Source of the DNA: a virus
Lineage: Duplodnaviria; Heunggongvirae; Uroviricota; Caudoviricetes
Length of the DNA stretch: 8,869 nt
Virus record (IMG/VR): IMGVR_UViG_2740892258_000018
Coordinates: 1 to 8,869 of that record
Strand: one strand, 5' to 3'
Translations under genes and position numbers: made by a program
Shown: positions 1 through 8,869 of the stretch, piece after piece
Layout of the letters: each line of letters begins with the position of its first letter
Position numbering within the stretch: the stretch's first letter is position 1
Notes under the pieces: generated by a model
What the model was told of the DNA's origin: nothing
Database searches by the model: none
The model's input: only the letters and a program-made list of their open reading frames with translations

Positions 1-1338
1 ATGACGGGGGCAGATAGTGAAGGCGGAGCTGAGGTGTATTCAGCCGCAACCACGCGTGACCAGGCCAGAATCGTGTTTGAAGACGCCAAAAATATGGTCA
101 GAAAAGCCCGGTCGACACTCGGGCGGTTGTTTGATTTCAACAAGCTGGCGATTTACCAGGAGCAGAGCGCATCAAAATTTGAACCGCTTTCCTCGGATGC
201 AAACAACCTGGACGGTCTGAACATCCACTGCGCCATTATTGATGAGCTGCATGCACATAAAACCCGCGACGTGTGGGACGTTCTGGAAACGGCAACCGGT
301 GCCCGTCTGCAGTCCCTGTTATTTGGTATCACCACGGCTGGCTTTAACAAGGAAGGGATTTGTTACGAGCAGCGTGATTACGCCATCAAGGTATTGCGAG
401 GCTATAACAGCGACGTGGAGGGCGCTGTAAAAGACGACTCTTACTTTGCGATCATTTACACGCTCGATGAGGGAGATGATCCGTTTGATGAAACGGTCTG
501 GCAGAAAGCGAATCCTGGCCTGGGCATCTGTAAACGCTGGGATGATCTGCGTCGTCTGGCGAAAAAAGCGAAGGAGCAGGTCTCTGCGCGGGTGAATTTT
601 TTTACCAAACACATGAATGTGTGGGTCACTGCCGAATCTGCCTGGATGGATATGATTAAGTGGGAGAAGTGCGAATACATTGCTCCACAACATGAGCTGA
701 AAACATATCCCATGTGGGTCGGCGTCGACCTTGCTCATAAGATTGATATCTGTGCGGCGGCAAAACTCTGGCGAACCGATAACGGACATGTTCATGCTGA
801 TTTTAAATTCTGGCTTCCGGAAGGACGGCTGGAACGATGCTCGCGGCAGCAGGCAGAACTTTACCGGAAGTGGGCGGAGATGGATAAGCTCATCCTGACG
901 GATGGTGATGTTATCGATCATGCTCAGATAAAAAGTGACTTACTGGAATGGATTGGCGGTGAAAACCTCAGGGAACTGGGATTTGACCCGTGGAGCGCAA
1001 TGCAGTTCAGTCTGGCACTGGCTGAAGAAGGGATACCGCTGGTGGAGGTTCCGCAGACGGTCCGCAATCTGTCAGAGGCCATGAAGGAAACGGAATCACT
1101 GGTTTATGCCGGGCGTTTCCATCACAGCAATCATCCGGTCATGAACTGGATGATGTCTAACGTTACTGTAAAACCGGACAAAAACGACAACATCTTCCCG
1201 AATAAATCCACGCCGGAAGCCAAAATCGACGGCCCTGTTGCGCTTTTTACAGCCATGAGCCGCTTTCTGGTAAATGGCGGGGGCGTGAATGACTTTCTGT
1301 CCACGCTTGATCCTGATGAGGACCTGTTAATTCTGTGA
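1..1338 (+). CDS. Phage terminase large subunit (HK97/Terminase_1-like), 5'-partial: window starts inside the gene
   Basis: 445-aa ORF running from window edge to TGA at 1336-1338. Contains an ATPase Walker-B-like segment (HCAIIDELH) followed by a TTAG motif and a C-terminal nuclease-type region. Walker A is absent, so the N-terminus lies upstream of the window; the ATG at position 1 is probably coincidental. Family assigned by recognition of the translated sequence, no search run. Confidence 0.85.
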   Translation: MTGADSEGGAEVYSAATTRDQARIVFEDAKNMVRKARSTLGRLFDFNKLAIYQEQSASKFEPLSSDANNLDGLNIHCAIIDELHAHKTRDVWDVLETATGARLQSLLFGITTAGFNKEGICYEQRDYAIKVLRGYNSDVEGAVKDDSYFAIIYTLDEGDDPFDETVWQKANPGLGICKRWDDLRRLAKKAKEQVSARVNFFTKHMNVWVTAESAWMDMIKWEKCEYIAPQHELKTYPMWVGVDLAHKIDICAAAKLWRTDNGHVHADFKFWLPEGRLERCSRQQAELYRKWAEMDKLILTDGDVIDHAQIKSDLLEWIGGENLRELGFDPWSAMQFSLALAEEGIPLVEVPQTVRNLSEAMKETESLVYAGRFHHSNHPVMNWMMSNVTVKPDKNDNIFPNKSTPEAKIDGPVALFTAMSRFLVNGGGVNDFLSTLDPDEDLLIL

Positions 1339-1355
1339 AACAGCTTATTACTGAT

Positions 1356-1496
1356 ATGACCGGGCTGATCGGTTTCGGTCTGCTCACTGCTGGCGTTTAT
1401 CTGTATGCAGGTCTGCCAGCGTCTCTGATGCTGTCTGGCTGTTTGTTGCTGCTTTATGCACTGGTGGTGTCCATGAGGAGAAAACATGCTTCTTGA
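1356..1496 (+). CDS. Hypothetical small membrane protein (46 aa, two predicted TM helices) filling the terminase-portal gap
   Basis: ORF ATG 1356 to TGA 1494-1496, not in the supplied track (under 60 aa). Translation MTGLIGFGLLTAGVYLYAGLPASLMLSGCLLLLYALVVSMRRKHAS is strongly hydrophobic with a basic C-terminus. Its stop overlaps the portal start (1486). An in-frame GTG at 1335 overlapping the terminase stop would give 53 aa. No convincing Shine-Dalgarno, so coding status is uncertain. Confidence 0.3.
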   Translation: MTGLIGFGLLTAGVYLYAGLPASLMLSGCLLLLYALVVSMRRKHAS

Positions 1497-2712
1497 TGCT
1501 CTGTTTCGCAGTGAGCCTCTGGAAAATCCCTCGGTTCCGGTAACCGGAGAGGCCGCTGAGACGGATAATATTTTTGCCCGGGATGTGTATGTCAGTCCGG
1601 AAACGTCCATGAGGCTGGCTGCTGTCTATGCCTGTATTTATGTTATTTCATCCAGTGTGGCTCAGATGCCCCTGCATGTGATGCGAAAAACGAATGAGCA
1701 TGTTCAGCCGGCACGCGATCACCCGTTGTTCTGGCTCGTTCATGATGAACCGAATGCCTGGCAGACCAGCTATAAGTGGCGGGAACTGAAGCAGCGTCAT
1801 GTGCTGGGGTGGGGCAATGGTTATACGTGGGTGAAACGTAATCGTCGTGGCGAGGTTACCAGTCTTGAATGCTGTATGCCATGGGAAACCACGTTACTTA
1901 ACACTGGAGGGCGTCATACCTACGGTGTGTATAACGAAGAGGGTGCATTTGCGGTAAGTCCGGACGACATGATCCATATCAGGGCGCTGGGAAACAATCA
2001 GAAAATGGGACTGAGTCCGATCATGCAGCATGCTGAAACCATTGGTATGGGAATGAGTGGTCAGCAGTATACCAGTGCTTTTTTTAACGGTAATGCCCGT
2101 CCTGCCGGGATTATTTCTGTGAAAAATGAACTGAACGAACAGAGTTGGAGCAGGCTCAAGAATATGTGGCAGCGGGCGGTGACAGCGCTTCGCAGTCAGG
2201 AAAATAAAACCATGCTGCTGCCTGCGCAACTGGATTACCGTGCCCTGACAGTTTCTCCGGTGGATGCTCAGATCATTGATATGACCAAGCTGAACCGGTC
2301 GATGATTGCCGGAATTTTTAATGTCCCGGCGCACATGATTAATGACCTGGAAAAAGCCACATTTTCGAATATTACACAGCAGGCGATTCAGTTTGTTCGC
2401 TACACGATGATGCCCTGGGTTGCGAACTGGGAGCAGGAGCTTAACCGTCGCCTGTTTACCCGCACAGAACGGGCTGCCGGGTATTACGTTCGTTTCAACC
2501 TTACAGGATTGCTCCGCGGGACTCCACAGGAGCGTGCGCAGTTTTATCACTTTGCCATTACAGATGGCTGGATGAGCCGGAATGAAGCGAGGGCATTTGA
2601 GGACATGAACCCGGTTGATGGTCTGGATGAAATGCTGGTCAGCGTAAATGCAGCAAATCCGTTGAATGATTTTAAAGATACGAAAGGCAAAGAGGAAAAG
2701 AACGATGAATGA
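1486..2712 (+). CDS. Phage portal protein, HK97 family
   Basis: 408-aa ORF with strong RBS (AGGAGA 1475-1480, 5-nt spacer). Size and sequence character fit HK97-type portals, including a C-terminal acidic tail. Sits directly after the terminase, the canonical order. Confidence 0.85.
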   Translation: MLLDALFRSEPLENPSVPVTGEAAETDNIFARDVYVSPETSMRLAAVYACIYVISSSVAQMPLHVMRKTNEHVQPARDHPLFWLVHDEPNAWQTSYKWRELKQRHVLGWGNGYTWVKRNRRGEVTSLECCMPWETTLLNTGGRHTYGVYNEEGAFAVSPDDMIHIRALGNNQKMGLSPIMQHAETIGMGMSGQQYTSAFFNGNARPAGIISVKNELNEQSWSRLKNMWQRAVTALRSQENKTMLLPAQLDYRALTVSPVDAQIIDMTKLNRSMIAGIFNVPAHMINDLEKATFSNITQQAIQFVRYTMMPWVANWEQELNRRLFTRTERAAGYYVRFNLTGLLRGTPQERAQFYHFAITDGWMSRNEARAFEDMNPVDGLDEMLVSVNAANPLNDFKDTKGKEEKNDE

Positions 2713-3304
2713 CCGTGAAACGCGCTGTTACAGCGGGGAAGTGCGGGCAGAACAATATGATAATGCCCCGACTCATATTTTGGGGTATGGCTCGGTATTT
2801 AACAGTCGTTCAGAACCTCTGTGGGGATTTCGTGAAATCATCAAGCCGGGGGCTTTTGACGACGTGCTGAATGATGATGTACGTGGATTGTTTAATCATG
2901 ATCCTAATTTCATTCTCGGACGAAGTTCTGCCGGCACGTTGTCATTATCAGTGGATGAACGTGGTTTGCGTTACGACATTGTTGCACCGGATACGCCGAC
3001 GATTTGTGACCTGGTGCTGTCACCAATGTTGCGTGGTGACATTAATCAGTCCTCGTTCGCGTTTCGCGTCGCTCGTGATGGAGAGAGCTGGTATGAAGAC
3101 GACGAGGGGATTGTTATCCGGGAAATCACGCGCATTTCTCGTCTGTATGACGTCAGCCCGGTGACATATCCGGCCTATCAGGACGCAGACTCTGGTGTCC
3201 GCTCAATGAAAGCCTGGCAGGAAGCGCGGGCGAGTGGTGCGCTGAAGAAAGCTGTTAACGAACGAATGGCGCGTGAGCGTCTTTTGACCCTTCTTAATGC
3301 ATAA
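2705..3304 (+). CDS. Prohead maturation protease, HK97 family (peptidase S78-like)
   Basis: Track ORF starts at 2666, but the ATG at 2705 has a GAGGAA SD 8 nt upstream and overlaps the portal stop (ATGAATGA), so 2705 is the preferred start. About 199 aa; contains the conserved His-containing LFNHD motif and a downstream Ser-rich segment (GDINQSSFAFR) typical of HK97 gp4-type proteases. Position between portal and capsid is canonical. Confidence 0.8.
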   Translation: MNDRETRCYSGEVRAEQYDNAPTHILGYGSVFNSRSEPLWGFREIIKPGAFDDVLNDDVRGLFNHDPNFILGRSSAGTLSLSVDERGLRYDIVAPDTPTICDLVLSPMLRGDINQSSFAFRVARDGESWYEDDEGIVIREITRISRLYDVSPVTYPAYQDADSGVRSMKAWQEARASGALKKAVNERMARERLLTLLNA

Positions 3305-3318
3305 GGATACTACTGACG

Positions 3319-4536
3319 ATGAAACTTCATGAGATGAAGCAAAAACGAAACACCATTGCAAAGGATATGCGTGCACTGCATGAAAAAATTGGTGATAACG
3401 CATGGACTGATGAGCAACGGGCAGAGTGGAACAGGGCGAAAGCTGAGCTGGATGCGCTGGATGAGCAAATCGCCCGTGAAGAAGAGTTGCGCCGTCAGGA
3501 TCAGGCATATGTGGATGAGTCCGGGCCGGAAGAGCGCCAGAATAATGAGGCGGAGAACGGGAAAAAGGCGGTGGAAGAGAAGCGCGCTGCGGCATTTAAC
3601 CGTTTTCTGCGTGCCGGATTTGCAGAACTGAATGCTGAAGAGCGTAATCTGATGCGTGAACTGCGGGCTCAGAGTGTAACAACGGATTCTCAGGGCGGAT
3701 ATACGGTGCCCACGCAGATGCGTAACAAAATCATTGACACCATGAAGGCTTATGGCGGGATTGCCAGTGTTGCGCAACTTCTGACCACATCAACCGGGCA
3801 GGATATCACCTGGTCAACGTCTGATGGCACGACTGAAGAGGGCGAACTGCTGGCGGAAAATACAGCCGCAACGGAACAGGATGTGACGTTCGGGACCGCT
3901 ATTCTGGGGGCTAAAAAGCTGTCATCAAAAATAATTCGTGTGTCCAATGAGCTGCTCCAGGACAGTGGGGTGGATATTGAATCTTATCTGGCAAACCGTA
4001 TTGCCCAGCGTATTGGTCGTGGAGAGGCGAAATATCTGGTTCAGGGGACCGGAACGGGATCACCGTTACAGCCAAAAGGGCTGGCAGCGTCGGTGACGGG
4101 AATCATCCAGACTGCAGCCTCTGCCGCTTTCACCTGGAAAGAAATGAATGCCCTGAAACATGCCATTGATCCGGCATATCGTGGTGGGCCGAAATACCGC
4201 TGGGCATTCAATGATGCCACATTGCAGACTATTGAAGAGATGGAGGATGGACAGAAACGCCCGTTATGGCTGCCGGATATTGCAGGCGGTACGCCGGCTA
4301 CTGTGCTGGGGATCCCTTATGTTATTGATCAGGCTATTGACGGGATTGGTACCGGAAAAAAATTCATTTTCCTGGGGGATTTCAACCGCTTTATCATTCG
4401 CCGCGTTACTTATATGGAACTGAAACGTCTGGTTGAGCGTTATGCTGAGTTTGATCAGGTGGCATTTCTGGCTTTCCATCGTTTTGACTGTGTGCTGGAA
4501 GATGTGGCAGCCATCAAGGCGCTCACTGGCAAATAA
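3319..4536 (+). CDS. Major capsid protein, HK97 family, with N-terminal delta (scaffolding) domain
   Basis: 405-aa ORF with AAGGAT SD about 10 nt upstream. The N-terminal ~110 aa are charged and coiled-coil-like (EQRAEWNRAKAELDALDEQIAREEELRRQ...), as in HK97-type capsids that carry their scaffold in cis. The rest reads as an HK97-fold capsid body. Followed by an intrinsic terminator. Confidence 0.85.
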   Translation: MKLHEMKQKRNTIAKDMRALHEKIGDNAWTDEQRAEWNRAKAELDALDEQIAREEELRRQDQAYVDESGPEERQNNEAENGKKAVEEKRAAAFNRFLRAGFAELNAEERNLMRELRAQSVTTDSQGGYTVPTQMRNKIIDTMKAYGGIASVAQLLTTSTGQDITWSTSDGTTEEGELLAENTAATEQDVTFGTAILGAKKLSSKIIRVSNELLQDSGVDIESYLANRIAQRIGRGEAKYLVQGTGTGSPLQPKGLAASVTGIIQTAASAAFTWKEMNALKHAIDPAYRGGPKYRWAFNDATLQTIEEMEDGQKRPLWLPDIAGGTPATVLGIPYVIDQAIDGIGTGKKFIFLGDFNRFIIRRVTYMELKRLVERYAEFDQVAFLAFHRFDCVLEDVAAIKALTGK

Positions 4537-4556
4537 CCACTCGTTGTTCAGTTACA

Positions 4557-4580
4557 GACCGCGCCGACGCGGTTTTTTTA
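4557..4580 (+). terminator. Rho-independent terminator/attenuator downstream of the major capsid gene
   Basis: Sequence GACCGCGCCGACGCGGTTTTTTTA: stem ACCGCG (4558-4563) pairs with CGCGGT (4568-4573) around loop CCGA, followed by a run of 7 T (4573-4579). Lies 21 nt after the capsid stop. Confidence 0.6.
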
Positions 4581-4602
4581 TGCCCGCACAGTGTTGCGGG
4601 CA
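4581..4602 (+). promoter_or_regulatory. Perfect 8-bp inverted repeat (TGCCCGCA-N6-TGCGGGCA) overlapping the SD of the connector gene
   Basis: TGCCCGCA at 4581-4588 and its exact reverse complement TGCGGGCA at 4595-4602, spacer CAGTGT. The 3' arm overlaps the GGAG SD (4603-4606) of the gene starting at 4613. No T-tract follows, so it is more likely an operator or translational-control hairpin than a terminator. Confidence 0.35.
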
Positions 4603-4612
4603 GGAGTTTCTG

Positions 4613-4930
4613 ATGGCAGCAATAGTGGAAAAACTCAGGGCGCAGTGCCGTATTGATACAGATGATGCAACTGATGATGAGTTACTGATGCTGTATTTCC
4701 GGGCTGCCTGCCGCAAGGCAGAAAATTTTATCAACCGTAAGCTTTATGAGGAGACGGTGCCGGAAGGTGATCCTGAAGGGGTGCTTATAGCTGATGATGT
4801 TTTGCTGGCGCTCATGTTGCTGGTCGGGCACTGGTACGAAAACCGGGAAAATTCCTCAGATGTCAGCAAGGCACCAGTCCCGTTTGGTTTTTCTTCTCTG
4901 CTGGAGCCTTATCGTTTTATTCCTTTGTAG
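4613..4930 (+). CDS. Head-tail connector protein (gp6-like, Phage_connect_1 family)
   Basis: Track ORF 4433-4930 overlaps the capsid gene and spans the terminator, so the ATG at 4613 (GGAG SD 4603-4606, 6-nt spacer) is the likely start. About 105 aa; the N-terminal pattern LRAQCRIDTDDATDDELLMLYFRAA is characteristic of gp6-like connectors. Confidence 0.75.
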   Translation: MAAIVEKLRAQCRIDTDDATDDELLMLYFRAACRKAENFINRKLYEETVPEGDPEGVLIADDVLLALMLLVGHWYENRENSSDVSKAPVPFGFSSLLEPYRFIPL

Positions 4931-4938
4931 GAGGAGAC

Positions 4939-5277
4939 ATGCAGGCGGGCAGATTACGTGATCGCGTAATTATTCTGAATGTCACCACCGCCCGCTCTCC
5001 GTCAGGGCATCCGGTGGAGACGGTGACGGAGGGAGCTACCGTATGGGCAGAAGTTAAGGGTATCAGCGGGAGGGAGATAATCTCAGGCGGAGCAGAAACC
5101 GCTCAGGCTACGGTCAGAGTCTGGATGAGATTCCGGCGCGATGTGACAGCGACTTCACGTCTGAAAGTGCTGACCGGTGCATTTAAAGGGGCCATTCTGG
5201 GTATAGAAGGTCCACCAATACCGGATGCACGCGCTACCCGGCTTGAAATACTCTGCAGCCTGAAGGGGAATGTGTGA
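4939..5277 (+). CDS. Head closure / head-tail adaptor protein (SPP1 gp16-like, Phage_H_T_join family)
   Basis: 112-aa ORF with strong SD AGGAGGAG (4929-4936). Pattern RDRVIILNVTTARSPSGHPVETVTEGATVWAEVKGISGRE...RVWMRFRRDV fits head-closure proteins. Canonical position after the connector. Confidence 0.75.
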   Translation: MQAGRLRDRVIILNVTTARSPSGHPVETVTEGATVWAEVKGISGREIISGGAETAQATVRVWMRFRRDVTATSRLKVLTGAFKGAILGIEGPPIPDARATRLEILCSLKGNV

Positions 5278-5723
5278 TGGATTTCAGTCTTGATTTTTCC
5301 GGCCTGGCGGATATTGCACGGGATTTGGAGACGCTCAGCAGGGCAGAAAACAATAAGGTTCTGCGCGATGCCACCCGTGCCGGTGCTGAAGTTATGCGGG
5401 ATGCAGTTGTTGAACGTGCGCCGGAGCGAACCGGGAAACTGAAGAAAAATGTGGTTGTTCTCACTCAGCGTTCAAAGCGTCGGGGGGAAATTATCTCGGG
5501 TGTCCACATTCGCGGACGGAACCTGCGAACCGGAAACAGTGATAACAGCATGAAAGCCAGCGATCCCCGAAATGCATTTTACTGGCGCTTTGTGGAGCTG
5601 GGAACGATAAACATGCCCGCGCATCCATTCATTCGCCCGGCTTTCGATACGACAGAGGAACTGGCAGCACGGATTGCTATACAGCGAATGAATCAGGCTA
5701 TTGATGAGGTCTTAAGTAAATGA
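5277..5723 (+). CDS. HK97 gp10-family phage protein (neck/tail-attachment component)
   Basis: ATG at 5277 overlaps the upstream TGA (TGATG), indicating translational coupling. About 148 aa, with the ERAPERTGKLKKN segment matching the P..TG.L pattern of the gp10 family. Confidence 0.65.
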   Translation: MDFSLDFSGLADIARDLETLSRAENNKVLRDATRAGAEVMRDAVVERAPERTGKLKKNVVVLTQRSKRRGEIISGVHIRGRNLRTGNSDNSMKASDPRNAFYWRFVELGTINMPAHPFIRPAFDTTEELAARIAIQRMNQAIDEVLSK

Positions 5724-6055
5724 GAGAGGCCACACTGTATTCCCTGTTGTCTCAGCTGGCCGGAGGACAGGTTTATCCTTATGTGGTCCCACTGACGGAG
5801 GGAAAGCCTGCGGTATCTCCGCCGTGGCTGGTGTTTTCTGTGGTGTCTGACACGGCATCTGATGTGCTTGATGGGCAGGCTGAATCCAGAATTACCGTGC
5901 AGATCGATGTCTGGGCGACAGTACCTGATGACGCAGATAATATTCGTGAGCAGGCGCTTGATGCGGTAAGAAAACTGGCTGCCGCTACGGTCCGATGCGT
6001 GAAAACCCGGGCTTGCAGCGACCGTTCCGGTCGCGCCGCCCCTGTCGCGCCGTGA
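5720..6055 (+). CDS. DUF3168-like protein (gp11-like tail completion/neck protein); C-terminus possibly altered
   Basis: ATGA overlap with the upstream gene at 5720-5723. N-terminal two thirds (LYSLLSQLAGGQVYPYVVPLTEG...WLVFSVVSD...ITVQIDVWA) fit DUF3168 proteins. The last ~20 aa (RCVKTRACSDRSGRAAPVAP) are Cys/Arg/Pro-rich and read like translated GC-rich non-coding DNA. Confidence 0.5.
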   Translation: MREATLYSLLSQLAGGQVYPYVVPLTEGKPAVSPPWLVFSVVSDTASDVLDGQAESRITVQIDVWATVPDDADNIREQALDAVRKLAAATVRCVKTRACSDRSGRAAPVAP

Positions 6056-6439
6056 CCTGCGCTCCCTGCACACCTGACGGTGTGTGAGGAAACTGCGCCT
6101 GATGGCGCAGCAGTCCTCCCTCCTGCCGCCCCCCCTGCGGCCTGTTTCCCCGCTGTGGACTTTCCGGGGGGCAGACGTAACCCCCTCCCGTTCCATCTGT
6201 CCAGGGTGAGATGCACCGGCCACAAAATTTTTAGCCATGAACCCGGCAAAAAATTTTGCGTCCGCCCCCGGACAGCTGCCCCGTGAGGCGGTAAACGGGC
6301 CCCCATCGGAAAGGTCCACTGCGGGGAGAAACCCCTGTGAAGTGGACGGCAGGAGGAGCTTTCGCTCCTCTGAAGGGGCACATGAACGTCCCGTCGCCGG
6401 TATCCGGTTTATCTCACATCTTTCAGTCAGGAGGTTCTT
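6056..6439 (+). promoter_or_regulatory. GC-rich structured non-coding region upstream of ssb; candidate single-stranded-DNA promoter (Frpo/ssi-like)
   Basis: 384 bp with no credible ORF. Nested imperfect inverted repeats: CACACC/GGTGTG (6070-6084); CTGCGCC/GGCGCAG (6093-6110); long-range arms CCCGCTGTGGACTTTCCGGGGGG (6148-6170) versus CCCCCATCGGAAAGGTCCACTGCGGGG (6300-6326); inner AT-rich pair CACAAAATTTTT (6219-6230) versus AAAAAATTTTG (6248-6258). Ends at the ssb SD AGGAGG (6429-6434). Plasmid leading regions are known to carry ~300-nt hairpin-forming ssDNA promoters upstream of ssb, psiB and ardA. Confidence 0.45.
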
Positions 6440-6967
6440 ATGAGTGCACGTGGTATCAACAAGGTCATCCTCGTCGGGCGTCTGGGCAATGATCCGGAAG
6501 TCCGTTACATCCCCAACGGGGGCGCAGTGGCAAACCTGCAGGTGGCCACATCAGAAAGCTGGCGTGACAAACAGACGGGGGAGATGCGGGAGCAGACGGA
6601 ATGGCACCGCGTGGTGCTGTTCGGCAAGCTCGCGGAAGTGGCAGGTGAATATCTGCGCAAGGGTGCGCAGGTCTACATCGAAGGTCAGCTTCGCACCCGT
6701 AGCTGGGAAGATAACGGTATCACCCGTTACGTCACTGAAATTCTTGTTAAGACCACGGGCACCGTGCAGATGCTGGGACGTGCACCACAGCAGAACGCTC
6801 AGGCGCAACCGAAGCCTCAGCAGAATGGGCAGCCACAGAGTGCTGACGCGACGAAAAAAGGTGGCGCGAAAACGAAAGGCCGTGGACGTAAGGCCGCGCA
6901 GCCAGAGCCTCAGCCGCAACCGCCGGAGGGGGAGGATTACGGGTTTTCAGACGACATCCCGTTCTGA
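6440..6967 (+). CDS. ssb: Single-stranded DNA-binding protein, conjugative-plasmid type
   Basis: 175-aa ORF with AGGAGG SD 5 nt upstream. N-terminal OB-fold ([99 protein letters not shown]), a Gln/Pro-rich linker and the acidic tip DDIPF. The linker is [21 protein letters not shown] rather than the Gly/Gln-rich linker of chromosomal E. coli SSB, so it resembles F/IncI plasmid SSB more closely. Confidence 0.95.
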
Positions 6968-6987
6968 TCGGGCTGACTGTGACAACC

Positions 6988-7006
6988 GCCCCGCCCTGTG
7001 CGGGGC
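6988..7006 (+). other. GC-rich hairpin in the ssb - ParB-like intergenic region
   Basis: GCCCCGC (6988-6994), loop CCTGT, GCGGGGC (7000-7006). No T-tract follows, so it is more likely an mRNA-stabilising or processing hairpin than a terminator. Confidence 0.3.
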
Positions 7007-7024
7007 ATCACCGGAGATATGAGG

Positions 7025-8869
7025 ATGAGCGAATATTTCAGAATACTTCAGGGACTCTGCCCTGCTGGCGCAGACGGAGGAAGTGAGCGTGCCGCTGGCC
7101 TCGCTGATTAAATCACCGCTGAATGTGCGCACGGTGCCGTATTCTGCGGAGTCCGTCAGCGAACTGGCGGAGTCCATTAAGGGCGTCGGACTGCTGCAGA
7201 ATCTGGTCGTGCATACCCTGCCTGGTGACCGTTACGCTGTCGCCGCAGGCGGTCGCCGACTGGCAGCACTCAACATGCTGGCAGAGCGCAACATCCTTCC
7301 GGCTGACTGGCCTGTACGCGTGAAGGTCATTCCGCAGGAGCTGGCGACTGCCGCATCGATGACCGAGAACGGTCAGCGTCGGGATATGCACCCTGCCGAA
7401 CAGATTGCCGGATTCCGCGCAATGGCGCAGGAAGGCAAAACGCCTGCACAAATCGGTGATTTGCTGGGCTATTCACCCCGCCACGTTCAGCGAATGCTTG
7501 TCAGGCGCTGGCGCTGGAGAACGACACCGCGCGTCAGGTGCAGGTGTTTGAAGCCGCCTGCCAGTCGGGATGGGGCGGTAAACCGGAAGTACAGACCATT
7601 CGTCGTCTGGTGACCGAAAGTGAAGTGGCGGTGGCGGGGAACAGTAAATTCCGCTTCGTGGGGGCTGATGCCTTCTCGCCAGACGAACTGCGCACCGATT
7701 TGTTCAGCGATGACGGGGACGGTTATGTCGACCGCGTGGCGCTCGATGCCGCCCTGCTGGAAAAACTCCAGGCTGTCGCAGAGTTCCTTCGGGAAGCCGA
7801 AGGCTGGGAATGGTGCGCCGGACGCATGGAGCCTGTCGGTGAGTGCCGTGAAGATGCCCGGGCATACCGCAACCTGCCGGAGCCGGAAGCGGTGCTGACG
7901 GAGGCGGAAGACGAACGTCTGAACGAACTGATGGCTCGTTACGACTCGCTGGAAAACCAGTGTGAGGAATCTGACCTGCTGGCAGCAGAAATGAAGCTGA
8001 TTGACTGCATGGCGAAGGTCAGGGCGTGGACGCCGGAGATGCGTGCCGGAAGTGGCGTGGTGGTGTCCTGGCGTTACGGTAATGTGTGTATCCAGCGTGG
8101 TGTGCAGTTGCGCAGTGAGGATGATGTGGCTGACGACGCTGACCGCACGGAACAGGGGCTGGAGAGCGCGTCAGTGGAGGAAATTAGTCTGCCGTTGCTG
8201 ACTAAATTGACCTCAGAGCGCACGCTGGCAGTCCAGGCAGCACTGATGCAGCAACCGGACAAATCCCTGGCACTGCTGGCATGGACGCTCTGCCTGAATG
8301 TGTTTGACAGCAAAGCGCATAGTAGTCCCGCCAGAATTCGCCTGGAATGTGAGCATTATGCGCTGACCAGCGATGCACCGTCAGGGAAGGAAGGTGCCGC
8401 ATTCATGGCGCTGATGGCAGAACACTCTCGTTTTGCTGCCCTGCTGCCGGAAGGATGGGAACGGGATATGACGACGTTCCTGTCACTTAGCCAGGAGGTG
8501 CTGTTATCCCTGCTCAGTTTCTGTACCGCGTGCAGTCTTAACGGTGTCCAGACCCGCGAGTGTGGTCACACGTCACGCAGTCCGCTGGACTCGCTGGAAA
8601 CCGCCATCGGCTTTCACATGCGCGACTGGTGGCAGCCGACAAAAGCAAACTTCTTCGGACACCTGAAAAAGCCGCAGATTATCGCAGCCCTGAATGAGGC
8701 CGGACTGTCCGGTGCCGCACGGGACGCGGAGAAAATGAAGAAAGGCGATGCGGCTGAACATGCAGAGTTCCATATGAAAGACAACCGCTGGGTGCCTGGC
8801 TGGATGTGTGCACCACGTCCACAGACGGATGCCACTGAACACACCGCTAACCTGGCTGATGCCGCCTGA
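7025..8869 (+). pseudogene. ParB-N-domain (ParB/sulfiredoxin-like) protein gene of plasmid leading-region type, interrupted by two frame changes
   Basis: ATG 7025 (GGAGA SD 7012-7016) opens MSEYFR... but stops at TAA 7109-7111. A second frame is open from 7029 to 7613 and carries the ParB-N-like core (GVGLLQNLVVH...AAGGRRLAALNML...RDMHPAEQIAGFRAMAQEGKTPAQIGDLLGYSPRHVQRML). From about 7502 the first frame resumes (QALALENDTARQVQVFEAACQSGWGG...) and runs ~455 codons to TGA 8867-8869. The three segments together make one ~600-aa protein. Confidence 0.7.
7031..7050 (+). repeat. 10-bp tandem duplication (GAATATTTCA / GAATACTTCA) in the first codons of the ParB-like gene
   Basis: Direct adjacent copies at 7031-7040 and 7041-7050, one mismatch. 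Removing one copy fuses ATG 7025 in frame to the ParB-N domain, giving MSEYFRDSALLAQTEEVSVPLASLIK... Confidence 0.7.

Follow-up and report, generated by a model that had tools for sequence, protein, structure and literature searches.

A small conserved gene between the large terminase and portal genes of a prophage head module encodes a predicted membrane hairpin protein

The DNA considered here, which we call the window, is a stretch of 8,869 nucleotides (nt) from a tailed-phage record (IMG/VR IMGVR_UViG_2740892258_000018, positions 1 to 8,869; Caudoviricetes), and our subject is a small open reading frame (ORF) at 1335-1496 on the plus strand, between the genes for the large terminase subunit (TerL) and the portal protein. 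The 3' part of the TerL gene occupies 1-1338 (+), with 445 codons within the window and a TGA stop at 1336-1338 according to the list of ORFs; in RefSeq, this part is identical to the terminase large subunit WP_001140907.1 of E. coli 14EC020. The portal gene runs from 1486 to 2712 (+) and encodes a 408-residue protein of the HK97-family Phage_portal type, followed by protease, major capsid and head-completion genes. Portals from six phages aligned at 79-88% identity. The product of the small ORF, VKQLITDMTGLIGFGLLTAGVYLYAGLPASLMLSGCLLLLYALVVSMRRKHAS, has 53 residues, a grand average of hydropathy (GRAVY) of 0.99, two hydrophobic segments and a C-terminal tail with a charge of +3, and is predicted to be a conserved two-helix membrane hairpin protein.

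The small ORF fills the entire space between its neighbors, as the original prediction had described, and overlaps both of them. Its GTG start codon (1335-1337) shares a GTGA tetranucleotide (1335-1338, +) with the TerL stop codon, and its own TGA stop (1494-1496) lies 11 nt inside the portal gene, which begins with the ATG at 1486, so that the two genes overlap by 11 nt at 1486-1496 (+). The intergenic distance had been given as 148 bp but measured 147 nt (1339-1485). A length of 46-53 residues had been allowed for the product, and we retained only the upper figure: the 53-residue form is the conserved one because the start that overlaps the TerL stop (ATGA or GTGA) is kept in nearly all Enterobacterales homologues, because Met8 is poorly kept, and because the profile of the phage protein family PHROG 7105 aligns from residue 1 of the small ORF. 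The 46-residue form, starting at the internal ATG at 1356, was ruled out, as position 8 is V, I, L, A or T in other members. In the Halomonas and Pseudomonas groups, the ATG of the small ORF lies 1-10 nt after the TerL stop.

Selection on the reading frame was measured over 54 distinct, gap-free 162-nt homologues. The median ratio of nonsynonymous to synonymous substitution (dN/dS), a comparison that the original prediction had proposed as a check, was 0.35 in the frame of the small ORF, against 0.95 in the +1 frame and 1.73 in the +2 frame. Stop codons were absent from the small-ORF frame in all 54 homologues, compared with 223 in the +1 frame and 50 in the +2 frame. Per-site entropy was highest at third codon positions (1.28), lower at first positions (0.87) and lowest at second positions (0.49), and within the E. 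coli clade 10 of the 12 variable sites were synonymous. The three antisense frames were broken in 43-54 of the homologues, and a 159-residue antisense ORF that spans the whole small gene (1131-1610, minus strand) was rejected on account of stops in 43 of them. As judged from these alignments, the small ORF is under purifying selection at the amino-acid level. The original prediction had allowed that the locus might simply be spacer DNA with a chance ORF, and in any single T-rich sequence an open frame of 53 codons is indeed not very improbable; however, this explanation is refuted because the frame is intact in relatives and dN/dS is low. The dominance of third-position variation, the full-length PHROG match, the 407 clusters of the family described below, and the restriction of broken copies to decaying or rearranged prophages all argue in the same direction, and we consider that chance can practically be dismissed. 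The interval 1335-1496 is almost certainly a real, conserved protein-coding gene of the late class.

To gather related loci we used the portal protein alone, so that the sampling was blind to the small ORF. One set held 61 loci from bacterial contigs at one genome per species, 60 of which had upstream sequence and could be assessed, and a second set held 80 loci from IMG/VR viral contigs. The small ORF was intact and in the same slot in 56 of the 60 assessable species-level loci, counting one (L036) in which it is four residues shorter, and in 79 of the 80 viral loci. The exceptions in the species-level set were a frameshifted copy from a genome-decaying symbiont in which TerL also carries a stop (L061), a locus where a deletion has taken out the end of TerL together with the start of the portal gene (L064), and two loci with very distant portals (28-47% identity) and no such ORF upstream (L065 and L067). 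In the exceptional viral contig (L102), a rearrangement has put other sequence in place of the first five codons. Stops and frameshifts, which the original prediction had named as grounds for abandoning the gene if found in related head cassettes, were thus confined to visibly decaying or rearranged prophages, and the small ORF was present in all intact relatives down to a portal identity of 57% to the window. Together, 139 loci contributed 78 distinct nucleotide sequences and 64 distinct peptides, from hosts that included Escherichia, Klebsiella, Xenorhabdus, Proteus, Serratia, Halomonas, Marinobacter, Pseudomonas and Idiomarina. As a separate observation, the decaying symbiont is Ca. S. endolongispinus, in which the small ORF and TerL are both pseudogenised, and the chromosome of the related Symbiopectobacterium purcellii holds five copies of the head module (L013-L017) that encode an identical small-ORF peptide in each.

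The reach of the family proved to be wide. A word-indexed search with the single peptide returned only near-identical E. coli proteins, and an alignment query was needed to find further homologues; the alignment-based search yielded 147 clusters at 90% identity, all labelled "hypothetical" or "membrane protein" and none with a Pfam domain. At E up to 0.001, an exhaustive profile search of 1.84 billion representatives gave 407 clusters (50% identity); nearly all have 45-60 residues and match end to end. Seven distant members (E 1e-8 to 1e-5) were looked up in their genomic context, and all seven lie directly upstream of a portal gene or a gene in the portal position, whose start they abut or overlap; Pfam identified that gene as a portal for five of them. 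TerL (PF03354 + PF20441) was found upstream in all four of the distant contigs that were long enough and had Pfam calls. On one short contig (L151), the family member is preceded by two small unassigned ORFs, with no recognisable TerL. These distant loci differ in portal length (416-511 residues) and in protease type (S78 or ClpP-like). The order TerL, small gene, portal also occurs in Ralstonia phage Dina (gp24-gp25-gp26) and in Synechococcus phage Ssp-JY37, and an overlap with the portal gene of 11, 7 or 4 nt, or direct abutment, is seen in nearly all homologues, distant ones included. In HK97 the gene is absent, and gp2 and gp3 abut. Matches found by tblastn in 53 Streptococcus phages (E 6-9, on the opposite strand and outside the head region) were treated as chance.

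The family as we delimit it comprises proteins of 45-70 residues with two hydrophobic helices, glycines at positions 13, 20, 26 and 35, and a basic C-terminus, all of which are present in the window ORF. Its gene is a fixed part of a widespread head module that consists of a PF03354 TerL, the small gene and a PF04860 portal, with a P27-family small terminase subunit (TerS) where one is annotated. The original prediction held that small membrane proteins are uncommon inside head cassettes, but in the type of head module seen here this one is both common and fixed in place.

The small ORF had also been described as unannotated, which is correct for some records and not for others: it is carried by RefSeq, through the Prokaryotic Genome Annotation Pipeline (PGAP), and by several phage GenBank records, and it is missing from the record of phage SfV (NC_003444). 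The RefSeq entry is the hypothetical protein WP_000811487.1, identical in sequence and placed between "terminase large subunit" and "phage portal protein" in E. coli 14EC020. Positions 1-5979 of the window match a lambdoid prophage of that strain at 99.93% identity without gaps, and the region is present in 928 of 5426 complete E. coli genomes (~17%); several E. coli phage records contain it too. The match in Klebsiella phage 1 LV-2017 has no CDS listed for the small ORF.

Against the hidden Markov model (HMM) phrog_7105, the small ORF scored an E value of 9.4e-20 and 71.2 bits, with residues 1-52 aligned to positions 1-52 of 52; PHROG 7105 is labelled function unknown. Weaker matches were to PHROG 502 ("membrane protein") and PHROG 4810. 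All of these, together with WP_000811487.1, belong to the same family, and they are catalogue entries without a function, a synteny rule or a Pfam family. A Pfam scan of the peptide found no family at E up to 10, holin families included, and a scan of NCBIfam gave a single irrelevant match below threshold. Literature searches for the family, for the accession or for a small membrane protein between terminase and portal found no report; papers on SPP1 and on Microbacterium phages mention only unrelated small ORFs between terminase and portal. The small ORF is therefore a member of a catalogued family without a characterised function, and we did not find its strict slot upstream of the portal, its purifying selection, its invariant glycines, its coupling anatomy or its co-inheritance with the portal described anywhere.

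In the SfV record (L006 in our survey), the small ORF is intact at 1530-1691 of the locus yet lacks an annotation, and the annotated portal start (position 2392 of the record) falls inside it in a different frame. The portal start conserved in all relatives is a GTG (VLLDAL...) 48 nt downstream of the annotated one (L006 1681 and 1633, respectively), and for this reason the SfV portal start is probably misannotated. Annotation of phage genomes often overlooks or discards small membrane proteins, as the omission from the SfV reference genome illustrates. A name and a model for the family are warranted, and the portal starts of the group need checking.

We searched positions 900-1900 for signals that could drive expression of the small gene and found no promoter-like sites on the plus strand and no terminator-like sites. 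Most homologues also lack a Shine-Dalgarno sequence at a usable distance before the start of the small ORF. The Shine-Dalgarno sequence of the portal gene, in turn, lies inside the small ORF: GAGGAG at 1475-1480 (+), within codons Met47-Arg48-Arg49 and 5 nt before the ATG at 1486, which places both the ribosome-binding site and the start codon of the portal gene within the last seven codons of the small ORF. In most homologues, a purine-rich sequence (AAGGGGG or AGGAGG) occupies the same codons, and the Arg-Arg or Arg-Gly pair in the basic tail is read from it. Since the small ORF has no promoter or terminator of its own, usually no Shine-Dalgarno sequence and an overlapping start, it is likely made by reinitiation after TerL: ribosomes that finish TerL would restart at the overlapping ATGA or GTGA, and portal initiation would then take place on mRNA that is being read through the small ORF. 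TerL, the small protein and the portal would in this way form a coupled set of low abundance. Translational coupling of the small ORF to both TerL and portal is, in our judgment, probable. The idea that the small ORF might target its mRNA to the membrane co-translationally was considered unlikely, because a chain of 53 residues is still largely inside the ribosome when it is released.

Because this arrangement makes the small ORF a bridge between two genes, it could be asked if only the act of translation matters, with the ORF serving as a coupling spacer or upstream open reading frame that brings ribosomes from TerL to the portal start and with a functionless peptide as its product. The overlaps at both ends, the portal Shine-Dalgarno sequence inside the ORF and the lack of one in front of it are what such a device would look like. 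Four invariant glycines and a length and hydropathy that are kept over deep divergence, in addition to the low dN/dS, are not, and in HK97 TerL is coupled straight to the portal with no spacer in between; we find this explanation scarcely credible.

The same anatomy bears on the suggestion, made in the original prediction, that the gene could be a moron, for example one for superinfection exclusion. The marks of a moron that we considered were expression signals of its own, a deviant base composition and patchy presence in close relatives, and we observed none of them. The GC content of the small ORF (0.51-0.53) resembles that of its flanks (0.48-0.54), and its sole compositional peculiarity is T-richness, which is expected of hydrophobic codons. 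Among relatives down to 57% portal identity, the gene was missing only from a different head-module lineage (HK97) and from decayed copies. A small prophage-encoded inner-membrane protein does have the general shape of several exclusion proteins, and gp15 of HK97 resembles it in being small, in its inner-membrane location and in having its gene among the late genes of an HK97-like prophage. As a moron, however, HK97 gp15 has expression signals of its own and is patchily distributed, whereas the small gene has no such signals, keeps a fixed late-operon position over ~400 clusters and is lacking in HK97 itself; expression from a repressed prophage is unlikely for these reasons. Models of defence proteins from PADLOC, run against three diverse family members, gave no match at E up to 1. 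An exclusion or defence function analogous to that of HK97 gp15 is thus very improbable.

The original prediction of a small hydrophobic protein with two helices and a basic C-terminal tail was borne out by hydropathy, charge and an AlphaFold2 model. AlphaFold2, run with an alignment of 70 sequences, predicted helices at residues 2-25 and 27-52 joined at G26, with a mean predicted local distance difference test (pLDDT) score of 88.7. The first predicted transmembrane helix (1356-1409, +; residues 8-25, MTGLIGFGLLTAGVYLYA), supported by hydropathy, Hessa-scale sums and the model, is only weakly hydrophobic, consists to 44% of Gly, Ala, Ser or Thr, and contains the invariant G13 and G20. The second (1413-1475, +; residues 27-47, LPASLMLSGCLLLLYALVVSM), supported by hydropathy and the model, is strongly hydrophobic and contains the invariant G35 and the near-invariant L31 and A42. 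Between them, the codon for Gly26 (1410-1412, +) specifies a turn predicted to lie on the periplasmic side; this glycine is invariant in alignments of 28 and of 70 sequences and is the sole internal residue of the model that is not helical. Further near-invariant residues are D7, Y22 and A30. Across the family, the C-terminal tail carries an average charge of +3, and the N-terminus and the loop are about neutral, so by the positive-inside rule the N-terminus and the C-terminal tail are predicted to be cytoplasmic, with Gly26 forming a very short periplasmic turn. Within each helix, small residues stand seven positions apart (G13/G20 in helix 1 and G35/A42 in helix 2) and are predicted to pack the two helices together; in work by Walters and DeGrado from 2006, this spacing is reported for tightly packed antiparallel pairs of transmembrane helices. 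We think it very likely, as far as a model can tell, that the product folds into a tight hairpin of antiparallel helices within the inner membrane. A sequence search of the PDB with the family profile gave chance matches only (E 0.17 or worse), and Foldseek of the AlphaFold2 model against the PDB returned nothing with E below 6; the latter is expected, because the model is a bare helical hairpin. As the invariant residues are mostly accounted for by this fold, few conserved surface positions are left to indicate a partner.

This predicted form invites comparison with proteins that perturb membranes, and the original prediction had mentioned a depolarising peptide. A late protein of this kind could be a mini holin, an antiholin-like factor in lysis timing or a depolarising peptide. 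In outline, the small protein resembles class II holins and pinholins of the S21 type in its predicted topology, two helices with both termini inside, and in a basic C-terminus and a weakly hydrophobic first helix rich in Gly, Ala and Thr. That small size alone is no bar to holin activity is shown by the 49-residue Neisseria protein NGO0488, which was toxic and complemented lambda Sam7 (PMC1931599). We ruled out NGO0488 as a homologue, since it has a single transmembrane segment and is encoded in the early region next to RusA. Against a lytic function, a close prophage has a full lysis cassette (class II holin, lysozyme and lysis protein) ~5 kb upstream, before TerS, and the small gene lies outside that cassette and beside no endolysin in any locus examined. 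The class II holin of this prophage has 71 residues, compared with 53 for the small protein, and the two are not similar: a profile-profile comparison with hhalign gave a probability of 0.3%. Coupling to TerL would also imply low expression, unlike a holin that works by mass action. We accordingly rate a membrane-perturbing role as quite unlikely.

We then compared inheritance of the small ORF with that of its neighbors. Relatives carry one of two types of TerL body (...NVTVKPDKNDNIFPNK... or ...NVVGK.LPGNDDVV...), and both types share a conserved acidic C-terminal tail, encoded at 1291-1335 (+) in the window (DFLSTLDPDEDLLIL). In pairs of loci that differ in TerL type, identity was 0.38-0.41 for the TerL C-terminal region, 0.70-0.96 for the small ORF and 0.89-0.99 for the portal; in the pair L033/L042, for example, the values were 0.41, 0.96 and 0.90. 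The joints were mapped in four pairs (L027/L030, L028/L031, L033/L042 and L034/L042), and in all four nucleotide identity rose from ~0.45 to 0.9 or more at ~40 nt upstream of the start of the small ORF, which places the recombination joints within the conserved acidic tail DFLSxLDPDEDLLxL. Because the joints fall in the TerL tail just upstream of the small ORF, the alignments indicate that the TerL tail, the small ORF and the portal are exchanged as one block. According to work by Yeo and Feiss from 1995, the C-terminal residues of the lambda large terminase reportedly specify portal binding. By analogy, the small ORF lies inside what looks like a portal-specificity block, and the DFLSxLDPDEDLLxL tail may both dock TerL to the portal and be a hot spot of recombination. 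Separately, we observed that the portals that follow the small ORF (L003-L157) start with a hydrophobic motif, M-[ILG]-[ILF]-x-x-[LI]-[FL], which in the window is MLLDALF (1486-1506), and that gp3 of HK97, which has no such ORF upstream, starts with MEEPKYTIDL. The motif may have to do with an association of the small protein with the portal; alternatively, it may simply result from the overlapping coding.

Co-inheritance and co-translation with the portal would also suit a peptide that is part of the virion, or is ejected from it, carried with the portal or the DNA and inserting into the inner membrane of the next host for DNA entry. Small genes for virion or head-completion proteins do occur beside the portal gene in other phages, and lambda gpW (68 residues) is encoded in the same slot, between the large terminase gene A and the portal gene B. 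Lambda gpW is a soluble head-completion protein, however, whereas the small protein is a predicted hydrophobic hairpin, and the Pfam scan linked it to no family. A hairpin with a GRAVY of ~1.0 and no soluble carrier domain should insert into the membrane of the cell that produces it, and a proteomic report of such a peptide, sought in the literature, was not found. We regard this route as improbable.

Fixed synteny, translational coupling and co-inheritance are the reasons why we rank first a different explanation, namely that the small protein is a portal-linked accessory factor working at the cytoplasmic face of the inner membrane. We give this a probability of roughly one in three, which makes it the best explanation overall. 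That the link consists of a role in assembly or packaging is a tentative proposal, well short of an even chance. One possibility within it is that the hairpin tethers or nucleates the portal, the procapsid initiation complex or the packaging complex at the membrane; this narrower version is, taken by itself, unlikely. There is a possible functional analogue in phage T4 (PMC9958956). Its portal gp20 forms the initiator on the inner membrane, aided by the viral gp40 and the host YidC, so that gp40 is a phage-encoded membrane factor linked to the portal when head assembly begins. The small protein would play a part comparable to that of gp40 with gp20, an analogy of function only, for which we claim no sequence kinship. 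T4 gp40 is larger than the small protein, and it is not encoded between TerL and portal.

Several points weigh against a portal-linked factor. The literature searches found no experimental report on any family member, and we know of no membrane-bound assembly step in HK97-like phages. The predicted cytoplasmic exposure is small, at ~7 N-terminal and 6 C-terminal residues, and the tail is also constrained by the portal Shine-Dalgarno sequence, which leaves little surface for binding of portal or terminase. HK97 and the two distant PF04860-type portals (L065 and L067) do without the gene, so that it is not a general requirement of the portal fold. Finally, the co-inheritance may just reflect a distance of 150 nt together with the conserved TerL tail being a hot spot for recombination.

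Another candidate function is that of a late modulator of a host inner-membrane protein, such as an insertase, a protease, a transporter or a respiratory component; it would not act directly with the portal, and the slot beside the portal would merely be convenient for tightly coupled expression. Nearly the whole peptide is predicted to be within the membrane and the conserved residues are mostly in the helices, as would be expected for helix-helix contacts in the bilayer; low, coupled expression fits the stoichiometry of a regulator, and the protein would act in the manner of bacterial small-membrane-protein regulators. Set against this, the hosts range from Enterobacterales to Pseudomonas, Halomonas, Ralstonia and unclassified metagenome contigs, yet the slot beside the portal is never left, when a host-directed accessory gene should move or vanish more often. 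No candidate target is indicated either, and we think a host-directed role unlikely.

If the small protein acts with the portal, this would indicate that head assembly or packaging of the HK97 type includes a step at the membrane; an action on the host membrane would instead represent a new late function in host takeover. Should the tether be true, a large clade of HK97-like phages of Proteobacteria would, like T4, begin procapsids or package DNA in association with the membrane, by means of an unrelated factor of some 50 residues that was overlooked through its tiny size and its "hypothetical" label. The small gene itself is ordinary, being annotated and common, yet it offers a lead to a possible membrane step in head assembly of the HK97 type.

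The far end of the window matches plasmid DNA. The prophage ends inside a tail-completion (gp17) gene, and from there on (5977-8869) the sequence is 100% identical to DNA from the leading region of an F-type plasmid, including ssb and ParB. The junction at ~5977-5979 was spanned by none of 6114 matching records from complete E. coli genomes, and the window is a chimera, a misassembly or a unique rearrangement. Compared with the plasmid pEcoUTI1f, the window lacks 338 nt at 7056, comprising nearly all of a DUF905 gene and the start of ParB, and a further 67 nt inside ParB at 7498/7499. Through these missing stretches ParB is split into two ORFs, 7083-7613 and 7538-8869, and the window ends exactly at the ParB stop codon.

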